Below, piece after piece: positions 2,917 through 20,000 of a stretch of 20,000 bases of DNA (positions within the stretch are counted from its first letter, which is position 1; each line of letters begins with the position of its first letter). The stretch is from positions 236,727 through 256,726 of the forward strand of contig QPGO01000116.1 of the NCBI GenBank assembly GCA_008632985.1, given 5' to 3'. The translations under genes were made by a program, and so were the position numbers. The DNA comes from Psammoneis japonica (lineage: Eukaryota). Below the pieces are notes generated by a model that worked only from the letters and a program-made list of their open reading frames with translations, ran no database searches and was not told the origin of the DNA.

Positions 2917-3726
2917 AAGATGCTCTGTGATTTTTGAACCCTTCGACTGTCGCGATGCCAGTCCAAAATGCAAGAAAACAGCATGAAGACTAAGTGCAAA
3001 GGTTGATGGTCCAAGACACTGACATCTTTTCAGACCATTCAATCAAGGTTTTTGTCTCCCCTCCATGCTCCTCCGAGTTTGTTCAAAGCCCAGCACATCG
3101 CAGTGCACCTGGGTGCCCTCAGAGTGCGTGCACGCCCTTCTCTCGCGAGAGGAAAAAGAGCTGCTTTTTTCCAAGGAGAGCACAACTTGTGTTTCACCTC
3201 TCAACAACAACAGCACCACAGGTTGAGTCAAACACAGCCAAAGCACAGCCTCAGAGGAGGATGGGGCAAGAAAGAAAATTCTCTCTCTCGAGCGGCAAAC
3301 ATGCTCTCTCAAGATGAGCCAAAGATGCTCTGTGATTTTTGAACCCTTCGACTGCCATGATGCCAGCAGCCCAAAACACAAGAAAACAGCATGAAGGCTC
3401 CCTGCAATGGTTGATGGTGCAAGACACTGACATCTTTTCAGACCACCAGTCAATCAAGGTTTTTGTCTCCCCTTCATGCTGCTCCTCCTCTCCGAGTTTG
3501 TTCAAAGCCCAGCATGTCGCAGCACACCTGGGTGTCCTCAGAGTGCGTGCACACCCTTCTCTTGTGAGAGGAGAGAGAGCTGCTTTGGAAAACACAACTT
3601 GCGTTTCACCTCTCAACAACAACAGCACCACAGATTGAATCAAACACAGCCAAAGCACAGCCTCAGAGGAGGATGGGGCAAGAAAGAAAATTCTCTCTTG
3701 AGCGGCAGACATGCTCTCTTAAGATG
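2917..3726. repeat. Two tandem copies of an approximately 405-bp unit (2917-3321, 3322-3726), followed by G20 at 3729-3748
   Basis: Both copies begin AAGATGCTCTGTGATTTTTGAACCCTTCGACTG and share long identical blocks such as CAAACACAGCCAAAGCACAGCCTCAGAGGAGGATGGGGCAAGAAAGAAAATTCTCTCT. Confidence 0.95.
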
Positions 3727-4539
3727 GTGGGGGGGGGGGGGGGGGGGGCAGCTCTCCTCATTCTGAAATGCACCAGCTCTCTGCACACACCAGTTGATTT
3801 GACAGTGTTTTTGTCAAGCCACTGGGCTTTTTTGCAAACTTTTTTTGCGCTGACATTCATGCAGAAACACGACTGCAAAGAAAAACAAAGCTTTCCTGTC
3901 TCACAGAGGTTGGTGCTGGTGCTTTAAACTGCCATCTGCAGACATTGTGCCACTTGCAGCTCACCTCTGCTGGTGCAGACAGATCTTCAAATGAGAGACT
4001 TTTGAACGAATCACAAGGTTTTTGGTGCATTCATGTGTGTTGTGCACCATGTTTAGCGCCAAACCCATGCAAGAAGATTGAGCTCCTAAATGAAGATGAG
4101 CCAACAGCCATCATGACCAAGGCAAGAATGCAAAAATTCCAAAAAACAGGTTGACAAGGCTGCATTCCATGTGTGGTCATTTGGCTGAAATTTGAGTTTG
4201 GTCTTTTTCTTTGTCTTGTGGAGAGCTCGCTGATTTTTGCTTGTGTTTGGTGTCACTCTTTCTCTCTCCTTCAGATTGTTCAGCAGCTCTTTTCACAGTG
4301 CTTGTCTCTGTCAACTTGGTGCCAGCTGCAAACAACAACAACAACAGGAGCATCTCAATGAGGTGCACTTGCACACTTTTTGCACGGTGTTGTTGTGGAC
4401 GATGCCTTGCAAGCACACATCAATTTTTTTTTTGCAAACAAAAGAGACACTCTCTGCACTCAGTGTTTTGAGAGTGCATGGCAGCCAGCCAAAATGCCCG
4501 CAGGCAAGTGCAAAAAGTGTGCCCAACATTGCAAGCCAG

Positions 4540-5400
4540 GGTGACAAGAACATTGGCAATGTTCTGGTGTTGTGGCCATTTTGCTTCACTTTGAGGCAGC
4601 AGAACTTCTTCTTGTCCAAGCAATGAAATTTGTCAACATTTTGTCACCACCTCTTCTGCCACCTTTTGTGTTGAACAGCTGCTCTGCAGTCAACAATCTT
4701 TTCTTCTGTGCCAGTGTGCAACTCACTCAAGACTCCACCACACAGGACAGTGAACAACTTGATCTTTCTGACAGCCAGCAGCAAACAAAAAAGAGGCAAG
4801 TCAGCTTCCCCAATTTTTCTGCCCAAACAAGTGCAGTCAGAAGGTTGCTCTTTTGCATCTGAGCTTTTTGTTGCACTGTGAAAAATGTCAGCATTTTTTG
4901 TCAAACAACAGCTGGGCATGGTGGAAGAAACAGAAAAAAAGTGGCTCAAAGAGGCAGCAAAAACAGCCGCACACAACAGAGTTTCCTGTCAAGTTGTTCT
5001 CAGAAAAAATGACTGCCTTTTGAAGATTTTTCATCATTTGTTGTCCACACTGCCCAAGAAATGAGAATGATGGCCAGCACTTCAAAGAGAGCAGACTTGA
5101 GGAAAGAAGCAACAGAAATTGGGCAGAAGCCCACTCAAACTTGCTCACACAACATGCGTCAGCAGCATCACACTGTCTCCAACCAGCTCTGTTGAGATTC
5201 ACTCTTCTGGCAACCATTTCAGAGCTGCCTCAGTCCTCCAAGGTCTGATCCTGAGGGCAAAATGGACAAGCTTGTTGTCACAACACTTTCTAAAAGTCAA
5301 AGAAGAATGACGACTGCTTCTGCAGCAGTCCACATGCTTCACGTGGAGCACATGAGTGCTGATGCACATGCCCTCTTTGCACCATCTAATTTCAGTGCTT
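4540..5400 (-). mobile_element. Possible heavily decayed MULE-type transposase C-terminus
   Basis: KKKFCCLKVKQNGHNTRTLP (about 4555-4612) resembles the C..CKQ.GHN.RTC knuckle. An upstream CKEGMCISTHVLHV is faintly SWIM-like. The motifs are imperfect. Confidence 0.25.
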
Positions 5401-7371
5401 GAGCCTTTAAATCTTGATTTCCAAAACACTCCTGTTGACCAATGACAAGATCCTTGCCAGACTCCAATGTGCCATCTTGGGGTTGGGGGGTTGGCCTCTT
5501 CTTGCTGCATTGTGTGCCCTGGAGCTCCCCTTGCTCAAATGCCCAGCAGAGTTTCTCTGGATGCACATTTGCAAAAACATGTTGGCTTGGTGATCACTGT
5601 GCTGCAGTGCCCTCTTTCTCATTCTTTTTGTGCATGCTGAAAAAGAAAGAGGTGTGCTGATCTCATTCTCAGCTGTCTAGCATGATTTTGCCACTCTCCA
5701 AAATGAACACTCTCCAAAAAGAACAACCTCTTGTTTTGCTTTGCTCAACCTTTGTTTTGTTTTGCTCAATGAAAAAATCATCTCATGATGTGTGTGAGAG
5801 ACTCTTTTTGCAGCTCCACTGCAAGACAGGGGCACTCCAGAATGAAAAGTCAAACATGACCCACTGTCAAACAAAGCAAGCATGCTTGTGAGTGACACAT
5901 CATGTTTTTGTCAGTGCTGGTGCTGGCTGCATTTCAGCAGATGTTGACAAGTTTAAGTTGTCTTGTGTGTCCTCCATTGTGCTTGGTTTGACAATTTTTG
6001 ATCCAGTGGGCTGTTGACTTGCACTTGGCACAAGTGAGCAACTCATGGCTGTTGTCCTTTTTTCATTGACAAAGACTGCACCCCAAAGCCCCCAACTCAC
6101 CCTGATGGCAAGTGTGCCAGTGCCAGCAAAAATCTCACAAAAGAGCACCAGTCACTGCACATGTTTCTGTGTGGCTTTTTAAAAGCAGCCAAGCAGTGGG
6201 TGCCTCAGTGCAACTGAACTCTCAGATGCCCCCCTGGCTGATGCCCCACCTGCTTCTCAACTTTTTTTTTTGTGTTGGCTGGCAGGCTTTTGCTCACAGT
6301 TGTTCAAAAAGAAAATGAGGTGTCACCTCTCCAGGTGGTTGGCTGGTCAGATTTGGCAAAGTCTCCTCACTTTGGCAAGCTGAGAATCTGGACATCCCAT
6401 TGGCAACTTTGAGCACTTTGGACCACCACATCCTGGTGACTTGAGGCCAAATCTTGGGCTCACCCTTCACACCAAGTTTGCTGCACCACACATTGTCGCT
6501 GCCCAAAAAGCCACAAATTTTCATGGTGCTTGATGTCACAACTTGAAATTGCACCCAATGCAGTGCACAGTGCACACAACAAACAATGCCACATCTTCTG
6601 CTGTGGGGCTTGTTTTTTGTTCATGTGTTCTTGGTTGTCACATCATTGATCAAGGTGCAAGTGATGTTTTGCAACAACAAGATGGTGGTTGACTTGAGGG
6701 TGGCCATGTTGGATTTCTTGTTGCTGCTGACCATCATGCAATGTTTGGACATGCTGGATGCTGGCAAGCAGTGGCATGCTTTGCAAACTTTTGCAGCACT
6801 CTCATGACTGTGGCACACTTGAGTTTACAGCCACTGGGGGTTTGTTGCCACCATTGATGGCACTGTCTGCATCTGCAACATTTTCAGTTTCCAAGTGTGA
6901 GGCAGTCATTGTGTGGACAATGTGCCACACATGATTTTCAGCAAGGAGCAGTGGAAATGGGCAGCAGCGGTGGGCCTTGCAGCGCTGAGCCAAAATGTTC
7001 ACAGTCATGGTTGCCCTTCCTTGTTGCACCCACATGTTGTTTGTGCAGCACTTTTTTTTTGCCAGCTGGCTGCCCCTCTTGCAGGAGTCTGCTGTGCCAG
7101 AGCTGCTGCCCTGGCTGGTGATTGGCCACCCAGTGCTGTGTGTTCATCACATCTGTGGCCACCCCTCTTGCAGAAATCTGCTGTGCCAAAACAAACTTCA
7201 CCAGGAGGGTTGGGGTCTTGCAGCAGTGTGCAAGATGTGTGCTCATTGCATCCATGGTGTGGTGCCAAAGCCACTTTTGGCTTTTGTTTCAAATGTGCTG
7301 CTCACTGGACAGTGGATTTTTTGATCTTCCACTGGTGCATGTCCTGCCACATGCATTGCAGCTCTTGACTG

Positions 7372-9250
7372 CTTTCTTCTGTTTTTTTTCTCTTCTTTTG
7401 GTTTTGTCTCGGGAGTGAGGTTTTTGTTAGAATGATTGGGGTCTGTGGTGTTGGAAGAGGTTGGTCTGGGGAAATGTGTGGTGGGAGGGGTGTGCGAAGC
7501 GCGCTTGGGGATGGAGAGAAAAAGGGTGGGCCCAAAGTGCAGACAGATGGTTGAAGTGAGGAGTTGTCAGCAAGGGCAGGATGGCGAAGTGGCTGAGCTT
7601 GGCAAGAAGAGAGATGGTGGGAGAGAGCACAGCCAAAGTTGAGGCTGAGGATTTGAGAGGCCCAGAGTTGAGGTGTGACGGTGTGACAAGAGGAGCCAAA
7701 GTGGTCTGGGGAAAGTTGTTTCCAGGCCATGTCAGAGTGGGTGAGGAGGTTGGAAGGGGCAAGCAGTGAATTGGCAAAGGCAGAGAAGGATGCTTGAGAG
7801 TTGGAGAAGGAGGATGGGTTTGTCCAGGGTGTGGTTTGGGAGGAAGGGGTGGGATGGAGGCGGATGTTGAAGAGGAGGAGCCAAAGAAAAAGACGTGAAA
7901 ATGGTGCCCAATGCTGCCCAGGTGGTCAAATGTAAAAGGGAGGAGGAAGAGTCCAGCTTGTTTGATGGCATCAATGACACATCAGAGCTGGGGGCAGATT
8001 GTGCAGAGCAACCAAGAAGCTTGTCCCGTGTGCTGCTGAGGTGAACCTTGTTTGGTGGGTTTTCAGGGACAGGCAACCGGGTGCAGGAAGTGGGGGAGCT
8101 GGTGGTGCGGTGACATCAACAGCCAAGAAGTGATGAGTGGACAGATGGGGCGTTGGGTGGTGTGGAGCCAGGAGTGAGTTGAGCGCTGATGTCAGCAGGG
8201 CATTGAGGGGTGGTCAGCTGGGAGACCTGCTGGTTCAAGGTGGGCTTGTTGGTGGGAGAGGCACAGGCCACAAAGGGGGGCCCAGGGTGTCAATGATGGT
8301 GTGGATGGTGTCACAAACATGGTTGGACAGCGGGCTTTTGTGCATTTTGGAGCATGCAAAGGCGCGGTCACCGAAAGGGTCAGGGCGGGCGTGGCCACAT
8401 GGGCAGTCATGTTGGAGCAAAGCAGAGGAGATCATTGGGAGGCACAGCTTGCAGAGGAGAAGGAGTGTGAAAAGGTGTGATGGAAGTTGGTTGGCAGCAG
8501 AGGATCGGGAGGGAGAGTGCAGGCAAAGGCTTGTCAGAGGAGACAGAAGGGGTGGAAGGGCTGGTTGTGTGGAAGGATCAGCAAGGATCAGAGGAAGGGT
8601 GTTGGTTTTGTGGTGGTGCAAATGAAGGTGTTGTGCAAGACTGCACAGGTCATGGTGTTTGATGGCATGCTTGAGAGAGGCAAAGGAGGGGGAGTCAAAA
8701 CGGAGGAGAATGGGAGCACAGTGAAGGAAGATGCGGCAGAGGGAGGAGAGGGTGGAGCGCGGGTTGGACCATGAGCTAAGAGAGGCAGAACAGCTCAGAG
8801 GGAGGTGAAAGACGTCACCACCATTGAGTGGGATGCCATGCTTTGTGCAGCACATTGATTTTGTCAGAGAGGTGATGAGAGCTGGGGTGGCGATGGCGGA
8901 GATGTCGCGACATCCGACACCGCCTGAAGGAGCGGGCAGGTTGGCGATGAGTTTGGCAGCTGAGGGGAAAGGGGGAGAGTGTTGAGCAAGGCAAGCAAGG
9001 AAATGCAAGGAATGGCCAATGATTTTGTTGACAAAAGGCAATGCCCATTGGAAAGGGGGGTTGAGAGATCGTTGGAGTGCGCGAGGTTGAAGCACGCATC
9101 AGCCACGAGGATGTGGGTGGCAGAAGGGATGGAGCATTTCTGGAAGAGGGTGCTTTGTGTTTGTTCATTGGTGAGGCGGTTGGCGAGGTGTCGGAGGTCT
9201 GAGGCAAAGGATGTGGCTTTGTCTTGAATGAAGTTTGCTGTGGCAGAGTC
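7372..9250 (-). mobile_element. 5'-truncated, frameshifted non-LTR retrotransposon with a restriction-like endonuclease (CRE-clade-like)
   Basis: Motifs in order on the minus strand: post-RT LPAPSGGVGCRD (about 8900-8940), zinc finger CPCG...DPFGDRAFAC...NHVCD (about 8310-8410), RLE motifs (R)PADI 8199-8188 and AVDVT 8123-8109, LLPFTFDHLG 7945-7916. A-rich 3' tail at about 7372-7410. Confidence 0.8.
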
Positions 9251-13413: not shown

Positions 13414-14622
13414 ATGTCTAAGCGATCTCAAGATATTCAGCTTACCAAGGATGATGACGAAGTAGAGGTGGGAGACAACGCGGGACAGTTTACAAAGGCG
13501 GGAGCACAAGAGCTGAAGAAACGTCGGATTGTATCTGTGAAGAAACAGTAAGTTGTTGTGTTGATCGTGTCATTGTACTTGATGCGGGTTTATATGCCGT
13601 GTCTCACCATGGTATTGTTTGCTCTTGTTCTAATTCAGTGAGGCGAAGCACGCGGCTCTGTCGTCTTCTCCCGCTCGAGCCAATCCGTTTGCGAAAATAT
13701 CCTTGCTACAGCATCTGCTTCGGGTTCGGCGGCTAAGCCTGCAGCAGCACCTGCGGCTTTAACCGTTGAGCAACAGAAAAAGCAGCTCATGCGTCAAATG
13801 CTGGGTTACATTGAGACCAACACCCGAGATTATCCTCGCGCCGTGCTCAAGGACGCCGTTGTCGAGTACAGTTTTCACTTGCGTGCGTTGAAGGTGCGGG
13901 ACGCATGCAATGAAAAGGAGAACAGCGGTGCTGTCAAACCTTCGACCAAGGAGAACAGCAACAGCACCGGTGCTGCGAGTCCCTTTGCTGGAGGATTCAC
14001 GGCTCCAGCAGGCGCGACCGCCGCTGCTCCTGCTCCTGCTCCTGCTCCCACTTTTGGTTTCCTTACTGCGCCATCGACAACTGCGCCCGCAAGCAGTTCT
14101 ACGTCAGGCTTTTCGCTTGCTGCTCCTCCCACAGCAGCCCCAGTTGCGGCCACTACAAGCCCTACTACGAATCCCTTTGCACCCGCTTCTCCTTCAGCCG
14201 CGGCACCCGCTGTTACTGCAGCCAACTCTCCTCAAGGGAACGCGAAGGCTGACGAGACAGGAGGCTCTGATCCCAATTGGACTGAGCGCTACGCAGTTCG
14301 TGCCATGCTCTACAGGCAGAGTGACGGTGAGGATACCCCCAAATTCTATGGCACGCATGCCCTGGTTATCAGTACTTCCAAAGAGAACGGTAAAAGCCGC
14401 ATGATTATGCGAAACGAAGTCAAGAAGATTATGCTCAACCTGAACATTGAGAAGGGCATGCCCTTTGAGAAAAAGGTAGAAAAGGGCGGGAATGGAAAAG
14501 CCAAAGCATCTTGTTTCTTTAAGGCCTCGGAGAACGGGACACAGAAGCGATTTTATTTCAGAGTCAAGCCAGAAAATGTGGATGCCTTGTACAACATCTT
14601 GACAGAGTTGGCGTCAGAGTAA
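13414..14622 (+). CDS. Nup50/Nup2-like nucleoporin (N-terminal importin-alpha-binding motif, Phe-containing low-complexity region, C-terminal RanBP1-like domain); exons 13414-13547 and 13639-14622 with an apparent 1-nt deletion near 13703
   Basis: Exon 1 translates as MSKRSQDIQLTKDDDE...GQFTKAGAQELKKRRIVSVKK (Nup50 N-terminal pattern). GTAAGT...CAG intron 13548-13638. Motifs NPFA, TFGF, GFSL. C-terminal RAMLYR...GKSRMIMRNEVKKIMLN resembles a Ran-binding domain. Confidence 0.8.
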
Positions 14623-14800
14623 GTCGCATCCGGCCTCAGGAACTCACTCGGGATGCATCATGAAAAATTTTCGTGGAAAGAAGGGGTATGTGGACGCCTT
14701 GTTCAACATCTTGACAAGTTTTGGCGTCAGAGTAAGTCGCACCCGGCATGAGAAGCTCACTCGGGAGGCATCATGAAAATGTTCGTGGAATGAAGGGGGT
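14576..14800 (+). repeat. Tandem duplication (about 112 bp) of the last codons, stop codon and 3' flank of the Nup50-like gene
   Basis: 14576-14687 and 14688-14800 both read ATGTGGAYGCCTTGTWCAACATCTTGACA...TTGGCGTCAGAGTAAGTCGCAYCCGGC...CTCACTCGGGA.GCATCATGAAAA. Confidence 0.9.
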
Positions 14801-15879
14801 AATAGTTTAGTCGTAAAGTAAATTCAACTTTGCAGAAACATTAGTGTATTGCAGACATGTCGGGAGAAACAAGGCTGTTAATCCCTTGACAGTTTTGTTT
14901 TGGCAGGACTTGTTTCGAATCACGTTGCGGGTGCGCTTTGAACAGTGCTGCATTTCCAGTCATTTCACATTCTTTCTCGGCATCGTTCTCATTTTTCTCA
15001 TTGCCTTCAATCCCATTCCTTTCAACTTGACCTCTTCCAGTTCCCAACACACTCCTTGCAATTCTCACAGCTTGGGTTGTTGACTGGGATGTCATCTGCA
15101 CCTTCCATGATCTGACAATTGACTTGTTGAGTGAAATGGCTTTGTGTGTGGGATGCTCTGTCACTTGTGCCTGGGCTGGGTGCTCCTCCAAATGTTGCAT
15201 AAAAAAGATCTGCTTTCACCTTGTGTTTGTTTTTGCATCCTACATGTTTCAAGTGTTCCTCCTCATGTGAAATGTCAAGGATGATGTGTTCAATGTTGAT
15301 CCTCAATGCATGCCTGTCTCTTTCCTGTTTGGTCAGCAGTGTGCAAAGGAGGGCAAATCAGCAACCCAGGCACAGCAGCACAAAGCCATTCCCTTGGAAG
15401 CTGTGTGCACTGGCTTGTTTTCTGCATTTTCAATCAACTCCCTTTTTGGCAGTTCTGGCCTTAGTCATCTGTGCACCAAGGGCTCTTTTCATCACAGCAC
15501 TTGTGCTTTGCACCAGTGCAAGGGGATGGGAGTTGCCTTGCCACCCTGCCTGAGATTTGCTGTTGCCTCCTTGTTGACCACATGTCATTTTTGATGGGCT
15601 TGCATGTTGCCTGCAGTTGCCCCTGCACTTCCTGTGGCTTCCACTCTCCTGCATGTCTTTTTTTGAACATGGCACAAGCTCAACTTTTCCACACAGTTGT
15701 TGTGCAACAAACATGAAAACCTCACAAGTGGTGCACTCTATCCAGCAATTCCTGCTGCAGTGCCATGGCCAAGCTGCAGCAGGCATTGTTCTGTGCATCA
15801 ATCTTGGAACAACAAAACAGCCCAATGGCCAGATTTAAAGTTTGAACAGGAAAGAGTCATGGCAACCAGCATTGAGCAC

Positions 15880-17050
15880 AATGAGGCACATTGTGGGAAT
15901 CAACAACTGAAGCACAAAGGATGCAGAGATGTGAAATCAAGGTCTTGCTGACTGCAGCTGTGTGTGCTGCACATGCACCATGTGTGAGGGAAACAAGAGT
16001 TGTCTTTCCAGTGCACCACATGCAGATGGAGAGCACTGCACTTGGGAAGATCCTGTGCACTTTGTGTTGCTGAGATGAGACTCTGTGTTGGTCATTTGGC
16101 AAATTTTCCCTGCTGTCTTTAGAGTCTCATTGCAAAGAAGGCTTTGCCACAGCAGCCCCCAGCACAAACTCCTGCAAAACACAAAAAAAACTGTTCATGA
16201 AGATGTTCTCCAACAATGGCGCCAAATGCCAGAAATCAGCTGGTCAAGATGAGAGGTCAAACATCTCCAGAAATGCTTGCATTGTGAGCTGGCTGCTCTC
16301 TCCACAGTGCAAAAGGCTTTGGGCTGGCAAGAAAAAGGCCACAAGAATGACAGCATTCATGAAAAAGTGCTCAGCGCCATTTTTGACATTCTTTGCATCA
16401 ACAAAGCCAGAACATTTTGGAAAACAGCAAGGTGCATTGTGTGGTCAACAATTGAAAAAGCAAGAGCAAAGGGTGCACTGATGTGAGAGCAAGATCTTGC
16501 TGAATGTGGTGGTGTGTCACACATGATGCCTGTGGTGTGAGTGGAAAGCAAGCACTTCCTTTCTGGTGTGCCTTGTGCAGATGCAGACAGTGCTGCAATT
16601 GGAAGGATCCTGTGCATTTTGAATTGACAAAGGGAGACCCCATGTTGGTCATTTGGCAATCTGCTTGATGTGTTGCCCAAGAATCTCACATTGCAGCAAA
16701 AAGTTGGGATGTCACAGTTTTTGCACTGACTCCTTTGCAGAAAAACATCAGAAGACTTGCTGCCATGAAAATCTCCTCCAACAGTGGTGCCAAATGCAAG
16801 GGTGCTGTTGTGTCTTGCACAAAATCAGCTGATGAAGAGGAGAGATCAGCTCCACTCAGAGCACTTGCCAACATTGCTCTCCAAAGAACACATGAAAGGT
16901 GCTTTGAGATGGGGTGGGGTTCACACAGCAATGGCAGCTGCACCAACAGCAGAGTGGTGCTCAAAAAGCACACTGCTGACATTTGTTTTGTCAACAAAGC
17001 CAGAACATTTTGGAGAACAGTTTTCCCACACACCATGGTGGTTGCCAACT
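15880..17050. repeat. Two diverged tandem units with a period of about 550-590 bp, family unknown
   Basis: Colinear shared blocks: GATCCTGTGCA and TGTTGGTCATTTGGCAA (about 16050-16102 and 16607-16659), CTCCAACARTGGYGCCAAATGC (about 16208 and 16776), TCAACAAAGCCAGAACATTTTGGA (about 16398 and 16991). Confidence 0.8.
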
Positions 17051-17306
17051 CTGCAATGGAAACAAGCCAGAGGCAACATTCTGGGAACCCCGTGCACTCT
17101 CCAAATGAACAATGACTGTGTGTGTGATCTCTTCAACCCATGGTCCTTCATCTCATCCCCAGCTGAACATGTTTGCACAGCTCTGCTGAAACTGCCAGAA
17201 ACTGTTGGAACATTGGGGGTGCAAGGCAGTTTGCACAGGTGAAGGGTGCACTGATGGTTGTTGATGATGTGGCAAATTTGTGTTTGCAGCTCCTCTTGAG
17301 TTGTGG

Positions 17307-17755
17307 TGCAGCATGCATGCAGACAAAAGGTCATTTTTGTCACGCCCTTTGTGACATTTAAAGGCTGTAACACGTCACCGTGACACATCAACTCTTGTTG
17401 GCAGCTGTGTGTTGCACTCCTCCCCATGTGTCACGCGTCCATGCGGCTCTTTGCTGACGTGCACTGACACTGCACGGTTTTGGCGGAACAGTGTGGGTGC
17501 GCACGAAGGAACGTACAGAACTGCACAGAGTTTTACGCGTTCGACAGTGATCAACGTTGCTGCAGACAACTCCCACTCAGGGTTTCGAACCCCTGGCCTC
17601 CTGCCCAATGGTTGCGAGATGAACCACTCCGCTGTGAATTCACAACGCAGCATGCATGCAGACAAAAGGTTGTTTTTGTCAAGCCCTTTGTGACATTTAA
17701 AGGCTGCAACACGTCGCCGTGATGCATTGACTCTCATTGGCAGCTGTGTGTTGCA
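17307..17755 (-). mobile_element. Miniature non-autonomous LTR element (TRIM-like), 449 bp, with 110-bp LTRs at 17307-17416 and 17646-17755
   Basis: Direct repeats about 90% identical with TGCAGCA...TGTTGCA inverted termini. 4-bp TSD GTGG at 17303-17306 and 17756-17759. Polypurine tract GGGGAGGAG (minus strand, 17425-17417) abuts the 3' LTR. An empty site is present in the paralogous sequence at about 19789-19807. Confidence 0.85.
17570..17642 (-). ncRNA. Degenerate tRNA-like sequence (Pol III A and B boxes) inside the miniature LTR element
   Basis: Minus strand reads CAGCGGAGTGGTTCATCTCGC (A-box-like; D-stem GCGG/TCGC) ... CAGGGGTTCGAAACCCTG (B box in a T-arm hairpin). The anticodon arm is short and unpaired, so this is not a functional tRNA. 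Confidence 0.6.
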
Positions 17756-18587
17756 GTGGGTCTTGTGCTCACTTTTTGGCTTTTGCACCAGGTTGACACA
17801 ACAACAGCGTGCATCATGCCTCGCTGCTGGACAACACGGCGGAGACCGTGCATGAGCCTCTTGTGTGTGGCAACGTGGTGTTGTCGACACGCACCTGGGA
17901 AGCCACGACCACAGGAGGGCGTGGCTCCAGGTCTCAGGCAATTCCAGAAGGATGCCAAGAGAGCATCCGTGTGAAGCACACCAGCCCGTCGTCTGGCCCA
18001 CGATGGCAGCGTGATTCCACACGATGACATCACTCGTGCATGGCGCATGATGGCTTGATTCGCATGATCCACCAATGTGAACGCACGATTGATTTGATGC
18101 GATCCAAATGCGAACGAACAGAGATTTGGCAAGATTCCCCATTCGCACGATCCCATTTTCTCTGCTCTAAACTGGCTCACAATTTTCACAACGACAAAGT
18201 CGCAACACATCTTCTTTTCAGCACCCAGCACACACACAGGGCAAGTGGTGGCCAGCAACAAAAATGTGTTTGCACTCCATGCAGCAAGAGTTCAGGGATT
18301 GGCAAGACTGAGTGTGTGCCAGCCAGCAAGCCGTGAAATCCCAACACAGAAGAAGCCAAGAAAAAGGCTGGCTGGCAAGTCATCAAGAATCCAAAGGTGT
18401 GAGTTGTGTCAGTGGATGATTGTGGCAAACAAGCTGGCTGGACAAAGGCAAAGAGACAATCTCTGGAGGGCCTTGCTGCAAGGAAGCTGTCAAGGGTCTG
18501 TGCTGAAAGAGGGTGCAGTGATGTTGTGTTGGGCCAGAGACATGGCTGGGCAAGGATGCAGCAGCTGAGTGTGGAAGCAAAAATGAT

Positions 18588-19500
18588 TTGAAGGAGTGGG
18601 TGCATGATGCCATTGCTGAGTTGGATCAAGAACAGGCAGATTGTCACATGGAGACCACAAGAAAAATGAGAGAGCATGTTGGAAAAGAATGTTCAGGTGC
18701 CACCGGAGATGCAGGCACTGGTGTCTCTGAGGCAGCAGAGCAACAAAACGGAGGAGCCGGAACATCCATCGGGCGATGCCATGTCTCAGAAAAGGACAAG
18801 ACAATCGGAAGGAAGCAATGTGATCACCACATGAAACAGGATGCAATCTGCAAGATGCAGAAGGCAAAGGCATTTTATGTGGTTGTGGGACAGTGCACTG
18901 AGGCTGTCCACCACAAGGTTGAAGGAGTGACAGTGTCTGAGAGGGTCACAAAAATGTGGGACAGTGTGGTGGCACCATTGGAAATTCTCAAGTCAATTTT
19001 GTTTGAGGAAACAAGAGAATCTGCTTGCATGTCCAGGTGGCTGAGGCTTGGAAGCAGCTGGCACTCATTTGTCAGGATGAAGGAGCAAGAGGCACTTCAA
19101 GATTGTTGCTGGAATCAGCTCATGAGTGGTGTTGAGATGGCGGAGAAGGGTCTTGCAACAAACTCATTCCTGAACAATTGTCAAGAAAGAAGGTGGGTTT
19201 AACAGGGATGCCAACAATGTCTGAAACAAAGAAATGAGAAAAGAACAAGGTGTCTGTGGCACCACCAATGGAAGGCACAAGGAATGTTGTCATGTCTTGA
19301 AAGACCTGCACAGGCAGTTTGAGCTGGGGGGATGGATGATTTTCCCAATTTGGCTCAGGAGACACTGCAGGTGTTGGACACATGTGGGTCCAAAAAAAAA
19401 CCTGAGAGCACAAGCTTTGTGCGAAATGAGAAAAAGCAGACCAAACGCTGGAGCTGGAAATGCAACAAGGTTGGGCATGTGAAAAAGGGCTGCCCTTCCT
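18588..19500 (+). mobile_element. Degenerate gag region of a Copia-type (diatom CoDi-like) LTR retrotransposon
   Basis: QADCHMETTRKMREHVGKECSG, AFYVVVGQCTEAVHHKVE, LEILKSI and later LKDLHRQFELGG/DDFP resemble, from memory, diatom Copia gag motifs (EYVG..Y, GQC...KLE, G.D.YP). Stops and frameshifts are present. Confidence 0.6.
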
Positions 19501-19680
19501 CCTTTGCTCCATGATGATGATGAGATCATTCATCAGTGGAGTCAGACAGTGCAAGCTTTGGGAATTGGCAGAGCAGTCAAAGTGTGGGTTGGCATGGTTT
19601 CCAAATTTTGCCCTCCTGTGGTCATCGCGCATTGGTCAATCAACTGATGGCTCTTGTGCAAAGTGTGAAGGAGTGTGTCA

Positions 19681-19970
19681 GAACATTGGGGTGCTGTGGG
19701 CAGTTTTTTGCAGGACAGACAACAACATTGCAGTGAAGTGTGCACTGATGATTGTTGATGATGTGGCAAATTGCACTCGCAACTCCGGTTGATTGCAGGT
19801 CTTGTGCTTGCTGTTTGCTTTTGCGCTGCTGGTTTGACACGGCAGCAGCGTGCAGCACCAACACGGAAATGTGTTTGCCAAAAATCTGTGCAGGGTGAGT
19901 TCAGGATCGGTAGACTGAGCGCAACAACCAGTCAGCAAGCCATGAAATCCCAACAGAAACATGATGCCAA
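19681..19970 (+). repeat. Dispersed repeat copy homologous to 17208-18360 but lacking both of its insertions
   Basis: Colinear shared blocks: GAACATTGGGG, GTGCACTGATGRTTGTTGATGATGTGGCAAATT, GGTCTTGTGCT, CAGCGTGCA, AAATGTGTTTGC, GAGTTCAGG, CAGCAAGCCRTGAAATCCCAACA. Confidence 0.85.
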
Positions 19971-20000
19971 GAGGAGCCTGAGCATTCGAGATTTTTTTTG

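Follow-up and report, generated by a model that had tools for sequence, protein, structure and literature searches.

The 449-bp element at 17307-17755 on the minus strand of the window, a 20,000-nt stretch of Psammoneis japonica contig QPGO01000116.1, was identified as a non-coding TRIM whose interior carries a tRNA-like remnant with A and B boxes, running on from a 12-bp palindrome at the position of the primer-binding site (PBS). Its anatomy, the match to a helper family and the inheritance of the palindrome are well supported. As a whole, the element is best explained as a non-autonomous TRIM that would be copied in trans by Ty3/gypsy family A of the same genome and that bears putative RNA polymerase III (Pol III) boxes, a composite reading to which we give an even chance. 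It is shorter than 1 kb, non-coding and bounded by two short LTRs, and it has a polypurine tract (PPT), TSDs and many copies, which makes it a member of the TRIMs.

The coordinates confirmed the 110-bp LTRs, the TG..CA outer ends and the PPT at the 3′ LTR which the sequence-only reading had described. On the minus strand, the 5′ LTR, which starts with TGCA, occupies 17646-17755, and the 3′ LTR, which ends with TGCA, occupies 17307-17416 and is directly adjoined by the PPT (GGGGAGGAG, 17417-17425). The two LTRs differ at 12 of 110 positions, 11 of the differences being transitions, and the inner end of the 5′ LTR reads CG in the focal copy. A 4-bp TSD, GTGG, flanks the element on the left (17303-17306) and on the right (17756-17759) and is present as a single site in the empty paralogous stretch at 19733-19857 (plus strand), which lacks the element and matches both flanks; this claim of the earlier reading was thus borne out as well. 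Its proposal that TGCAACA derives from TGTAACA was wrong: TGCA is the original start in 53/53 full copies, which rules out TGTAACA as the ancestral LTR end, and TA-rich copies begin with TGCAATA. The 5′ LTR further contains a T4 run (17664-17667), a short hairpin (17677-17695) and the word TTTAAA (17696-17701). On the sense strand there is one T4 run per LTR, at LTR positions 89-92, and none elsewhere in the element; the run in the 3′ LTR (17325-17328) would be the first possible Pol III terminator 3′ of the boxes.

One base past the 5′ LTR lies the 12-bp palindrome (17633-17644), found there instead of a TGG-type PBS just as the sequence-only reading had it, and placed in register with those of gypsy families A, B and D. 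Compared with 31 host tRNA calls, an incomplete set, the primer-site position showed no TGG, at most 2 bases of complementarity to a tRNA 3′ end and 6 to internal tRNA sequence. The Asp/Glu-like tRNA-like remnant follows at 17570-17641, with a model match of 10.4 bits at 17571-17638. It consists, in order, of the A box (17624-17634), a variable D/anticodon part, a T-arm with 4/5 pairs and a 3′ acceptor strand, while the palindrome stands in the place of the 5′ acceptor strand and shares 2 bases with the A box. Position 8 of the A box is C in the focal copy and T in TA-rich copies, and the B box (GGTTCGAAACC, 17581-17591) lies 43 bases 3′ of the A-box start. The A and B boxes of the earlier reading therefore stood, whereas its D-stem is only partial (3/4 pairs) and an acceptor stem is absent (2/7 pairs). 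The remaining internal region (17426-17569) showed no similarity to gypsy family A (score 24; shuffled mean 26).

We found at least 255 PPT-LTR junctions and 208 exact B-box 22-mers in the genome using exact patterns, each with 0 matches in the reversed control, and a DNA search returned 322 candidates, 40 of which were scored. Three samples comprising 62 loci contained 53 full copies. Exact 4-bp TSDs flank 46 of these 53 and 5-bp TSDs none (three pairs are duplicates); 28 of the 43 distinct exact TSDs begin with C and 22 finish with G. The tRNA-like part was present in all 40 loci picked by the PPT, even though 26 of these had been picked mostly for the absence of a visible exact B-box match nearby, and both box motifs were kept in 31 of the 40 (the pattern missed 2 junctions). 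In the full copies, from samples partly picked on these motifs, the B box was found in 52/53, a relaxed A box in 47/53 and the strict T in 15/53, and profile matches to the tRNA-like part were internal in 53/53. The element thus belongs to a multi-copy family with a fixed internal tRNA-like cassette, as had been proposed, and its presence in 40/40 PPT-picked copies rules out a one-off SINE insertion. The suggestion of a SINE/LTR hybrid family holds for the copy number and the cassette, while a hybrid origin is a guess: no free SINE with this head, that is, a copy outside the TRIM with its own TSD and tail, was seen, and the 20 B-box matches taken in genome order from the 208 all adjoin an LTR. 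Searches of metagenome and viral collections for diverged relatives of the TRIM gave 0 matches, then 20 matches lacking a B box or LTR (chance), then 0, and no relative of the gypsy elements was found in viral contigs.

Several loci showed unusual arrangements. Tandem LTR-internal-LTR arrays of the focal family occur at L006 and L170. The copy at L002 (G000:C94:14385-14833) is 100% identical to the focal element and has the same immediate flanks, so it is either a second haplotype or a segmental duplicate. At L113 (G000:C118:160963 and 163106), two rearranged TRIM pieces have an LTR end plus palindrome fused to an inverted LTR start, with the breakpoint directly 3′ of the palindrome. At L040 (G000:C160:157806), a TA-rich gypsy family A element sits within the tRNA-like part of a TRIM.

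The palindrome at the primer site was also found in the autonomous elements of the genome. We sampled 20 of at least 150 RNase H matches, picked for long open frames, and an LTR pair was recognized in 19. Four Pol frames were scanned, and all carried gypsy-type RT and RNase H, with an integrase behind in three; the order in family A is RT-RNaseH-integrase. None of the 19 elements had a tRNA 3′-end PBS, with no match to a tRNA 3′ end longer than 2 bases, and 14 of them carried a 12-bp palindrome with 5-6 of 6 pairs at this position (6/6 in eight, 5/6 in six), as compared with at most 0.33% of random positions at 6/6. The other five showed only 3-4 of 6 pairs; these are TA-poor copies, one with a mis-set boundary. 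The letters of the palindrome vary between families, while its symmetry and position are constant, and the autonomous families have it without a tRNA-like piece in the bases read after it. Copia loci, with LTR pairs in 9/10, showed by eye TGG or other motifs and no comparable palindrome. The missing PBS and the palindrome are a trait common to the autonomous Ty3/gypsy elements of this genome and not a consequence of the tRNA-like part.

The search for an autonomous partner, which the sequence-only reading had called for, pointed to gypsy family A, which matches the TRIM LTR in 9/10 first and 9/10 last bases (4-8 for five LTRs of other families) and makes 4-bp TSDs. Family E also has 4-bp TSDs, with a poorer match of its ends (8/10 and 6/10), and families B, C and D have 5-bp TSDs. 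The palindrome of family A has the register of the TRIM and other letters. Termini, TSD length and type of primer site are therefore common to family A and the TRIM, while the LTR body and internal sequence are not, the internal score being at shuffle level. Family A is likely the autonomous partner on this comparison. Of the 17 of 20 pattern matches that were followed up, none belonged to a longer element having the LTR end and palindrome of the TRIM itself. Three other candidate links were rejected. The 11-base LTR word CCTTTTGTCTG, common to family A and the TRIM, was matched by 75 of 300 shuffles and is not significant; family D, which has a GAATTC core in common with the TRIM, was ruled out as partner by its 5-bp TSDs; and shared palindrome arms between family A and the TRIM were ruled out by the different arms of a real TA-rich family A copy.

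It is known that tRNA-independent priming occurs in Ty3/gypsy elements by self-priming of the Tf1 type. Tf1 requires its LTR to contain a sequence complementary to the primer site, whereas in the focal TRIM, as read in one TA-rich copy, no such complement of 5 or more bases was found. The palindrome of a TA-rich TRIM is predicted to form a duplex of -11.6 kcal and no hairpin. We propose that the TRIM would be packaged and integrated by family A proteins, and that two RNA copies may pair via the palindrome, the cut end of one priming minus-strand DNA on the other, without a tRNA. We hold these two steps, taken as a package, with considerable confidence, and the non-standard priming suggested earlier is supported by a palindrome without a tRNA PBS that is common to the TRIM and the gypsy elements. 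The TRIM also offers a palindromic primer site on a minimal element without proteins of its own, with a likely helper family in the same genome. According to Repbase, gypsy elements of Thalassiosira are said to self-prime by a 12-bp palindrome; we found no description of this in the literature searched, and, if it is right, the palindrome is already known from diatom gypsy elements.

We then considered the nature of the tRNA-like part. It aligned best with host tRNA-Asp and tRNA-Glu, with about 42 of 68 columns matching tRNA-Glu. In shuffle tests on four copies, 0, 2, 0 and 0 of 200 shuffles scored as high against host tRNAs as the copy itself. When the element was resampled 200,000 times with a Markov model, a cassette of A plus B box came up 5 times. 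The tRNA covariance proposed as a check gave a divided answer: a covariance model built from 24 host tRNAs found the tRNA-like spot in 21/21 sources at 8.5-15.5 bits, against a background of up to 11.3, while Rfam found none, and neither ARAGORN nor Rfam called a tRNA in the window or in the TA-rich copy. These missing calls and low model scores are what would be expected if the likeness were due to chance, a mere B-box-like word beside an A-box-like word; the resamples, the tRNA-Glu match and the shuffle tests make this highly improbable. The remnant also lacks the cloverleaf and the gene-level covariance score of a functional tRNA gene. It is a remnant of promoter-like character, not a tRNA gene.

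Most variants that several copies have in common lie between the boxes and just 3′ of the B box. Variation per position was 0.0035 in the A box, 0.0068 in the B box, 0.0177 in the spacer and 0.0104 downstream; the A-box figure stems from 2 variants over 7 positions and the B-box figure from 5 over 9, a level not far from the 0.010 seen downstream. With such small counts, in a sample partly picked on the B box, conservation of the boxes is weak evidence for promoter use.

An A/B cassette search of the genome gave 56 matches, as compared with 19 in the control, and revealed two further TRIM families. One, of about 723 bp with 222-bp LTRs, is Helenus-like: each of its LTRs contains an A box, a B box and a T5, and its primer site is of the TGG type (L216-L218, e.g. 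G000:C246:13990 and 14491). The other (L203-L207, e.g. G000:C57:196717-197321, minus) is 599-612 bp long, with 152-bp LTRs, 5-bp TSDs and 5 full copies. It carries T4 at LTR position 114, an A box at LTR position 127, a 12-base host tRNA-iMet PBS and an internal B box at position 181. With the A box in the LTR and the B box internal, only the 5′ junction brings the two boxes together as a pair. The sole sequence that this second family has in common with the focal element runs for 16 bases into the B box (E 0.25), and its one diverged relative lacks the 5′ part. Such independent, repeated box placement raises the odds that the boxes may be used. Also noted were a repeat with a tRNA-like A/B cassette, whose units, each about 725 bp long, overlap or stand in tandem and contain AACCCT-like words (L213-L215, L219, L220 and L222), with gypsy family A inserted at two of its loci, and a weaker A/B-like cassette at four loci (L208-L211), 77-98% alike, at which an LTR pair was not seen.

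We propose that a single capture, from a tRNA gene or a SINE head, brought in the A/B boxes, which may serve as an internal Pol III promoter or a TFIIIC site supplying element RNA, the tRNA-like piece itself being neither tRNA nor primer. The recurrence of the box motifs in the second TRIM family with its 5 full copies, and in a third, Helenus-like one, argues for the promoter reading. This third step is evenly poised; it requires either that transcription pass through the T4 of the LTR or that it begin unusually far upstream. The boxes lie at element positions 122 (A) and 163-165 (B) and the LTR ends at 110, which puts the A box 12 bases past the LTR. A tRNA-type Pol III start lies 10-20 bases upstream of the A box and would thus be placed within the final ~10 bases of the LTR. 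With the only T4 at LTR 89-92, an RNA starting there would lack a terminal repeat and part of the LTR. Given that T4 is the first T run 3′ of 14 of 31 host tRNA genes, it can probably terminate transcription in the TRIM. Replication from a Pol III RNA therefore needs read-through, tandem copies or a start more than 30 bases upstream.

RNA contigs covering the element interior were found, one in each of runs X1 and X2, at a depth of about 3. The X1 contig is 262 nt long, less than 90% alike and covers 17405-17650, and the X2 contig covers 17464-17641; both have TA letters at several sites where the focal copy has CA or TG. Of the 14 gap letters in the X1 contig, 13 lie near the PPT and one in the B box, where the consensus is intact. 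Its end lies 16 bases upstream of the A box, in the expected Pol III start region, and that of X2 lies 9 bases away; since contig ends are unable to show starts, the contigs were not counted as evidence. Pol III-linked transcription of the TRIM is plausible. Its most far-reaching form appears rather doubtful to us: a TRIM without a tRNA primer in which a captured tRNA gene would act as a wholly internal Pol III promoter, with the RNA starting at the extreme end of the 5′ LTR, palindrome pairing priming synthesis, and R either shorter than about 10 bases or supplied by read-through or tandem RNAs. If it is true, the three families would line up by the place of their promoter, from the LTR through a position spanning the PBS to the interior, so that only the 5′ junction can fire.

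The layout that leaves a Pol III RNA without an R region would pose no difficulty for a TRIM that belongs to the palindrome-primed gypsy clade and is transcribed by Pol II in the ordinary way, its tRNA-like piece being a functionless passenger captured once in the founder, e.g. when a SINE inserted or the template was switched. TATA-like and AATAA-like words in the LTR fit such transcription, the boxes show neither significant excess conservation nor protection of TA, and the absence of diverged relatives from the metagenome and viral collections points the same way. Against a passenger speak the presence of both boxes with the spacing they have in a tRNA, next to acceptor, D and anticodon arms that are decayed or vary between subfamilies, and the A/B boxes in three unrelated TRIM families of one genome. 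We consider it a serious contender, though clearly the less probable one, and it keeps this standing because the R-region problem does not arise for an RNA that Pol II makes from the LTR.

A role of the tRNA-like fold at the RNA level, in priming or packaging, would instead make use of its 2-base overlap with the palindrome and of the paired T-arm (4/5), for instance if it attracted RNase P or Z to a cleavage site beside the palindrome or mimicked an RT-bound tRNA. The acceptor stem has 2/7 pairs, and if the RNA were cut at tRNA position 1, the primer would retain only 3 bases of the palindrome; a TA-rich copy folds without a cloverleaf, and the autonomous families have the palindrome with no such piece in the bases read after it. 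This makes a role of the fold unlikely.

In comparison with known systems, the focal element is a variant of the TRIMp3/Helenus-like elements, TRIMp3-like in its working if the boxes are used, and it differs from Helenus in two defining features. Helenus/TRIMp3 elements (Kojima 2024, PMC10886601) are likewise short and non-coding and, in the part of that article available, carry a degenerate tRNA-derived piece that keeps the A and B boxes; their gypsy-dependent animal members make 4-bp TSDs, and their promoter function is likewise only inferred. The small-RNA-gene A and B box motifs of the umbrella term TRIMp3 are present in the focal family. In Helenus, as described there, both LTRs carry the tRNA piece and the PBS is complementary to a tRNA, whereas the piece of the focal TRIM is single and internal, beyond the LTR end and after the palindrome, and a tRNA-complementary PBS was not found in it. 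The available text bears out the statement of the sequence-only reading that Cassandra 5S and Helenus tRNA-like sequences sit within LTRs; it names fungi, animals and a plant as Helenus/TRIMp3 hosts and, in that part, has no mention of 'diatom' or 'palindrom'. Cassandra and Ajax (PMC10886601; PMC7215508, each in its available part) resemble the focal TRIM in having a small-RNA promoter in a TRIM, and the tandem arrays of Cassandra, which are read through (PMC7215508), resemble those of the focal family. Their 5S-derived promoter is in the LTR, next to a normal PBS, whereas the promoter-like piece here is internal, with no Rfam match to 5S rRNA; Cassandra also has an 18-bp R between start and terminator, while the focal layout gives none obviously.

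The Conserved Hairpin Site of fungal GalEa elements (PMC5445492, available part) is likewise a palindrome that replaces the PBS after the 5′ LTR. GalEa elements are Copia, the site being 9-10 bp long with a second complementary motif 12-41 bp downstream; an A/B cassette is not described in that part, and the mechanism of the palindrome is left open there. The biv-TRIM (PMC6934838) has no clear PBS, and its inner domain contains palindromes as well as stretches similar to tRNAs; the tRNA matches are only short and at varying places, and 'polymerase III' is absent from the available text. All small-RNA-promoter TRIMs that we found described, in the available parts of these sources, keep the promoter in the LTR, the source of the terminal repeat, and an internal or junction-spanning promoter would widen this class and test the minimum length of R. 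Neither an internal A/B cassette in a TRIM nor diatom gypsy palindromes were described in the literature searched, outside which lay Repbase, most subscription journals and supplements; by keyword, PMC2806351 yielded nothing of relevance.

The differences between TRIM copies are mostly TA to CA or TG changes, which affected 42% of TA positions versus 2% of others when 82 copies were compared with one TA-rich reference copy. In a sample not chosen for TA, the A-box TA was kept in only 2/75 copies, so there is no footprint of TA protection over the boxes, and the A box is now weakened or altered in most copies. The A-box T has since been lost from most genomic copies through TA-to-CA/TG mutation. 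The TA of the LTR word TTTAAA was spared (71/76 and 62/76). A bioRxiv study (10.64898/2026.01.13.699255) reportedly treats hypermutability in Bigelowiella. In the window itself, TA is depleted at 1-1000, 3001-9000 and 15001-20000 (1-5 per kb versus 24-47 in gene-rich parts).

The focal TRIM is surrounded by decayed repeat DNA, including a decayed gag-like stretch at 18500-19500 with a CCHC zinc-knuckle-like word, seen by eye, at ~19450-19495. Tandem duplications of about 412 bp and about 113 bp lie at 2917-3726 and 14576-14798, respectively, and a eukaryote-type serine acetyltransferase gene (Pfam SATase_N and Hexapep) occupies 1322-2764 on the minus strand.
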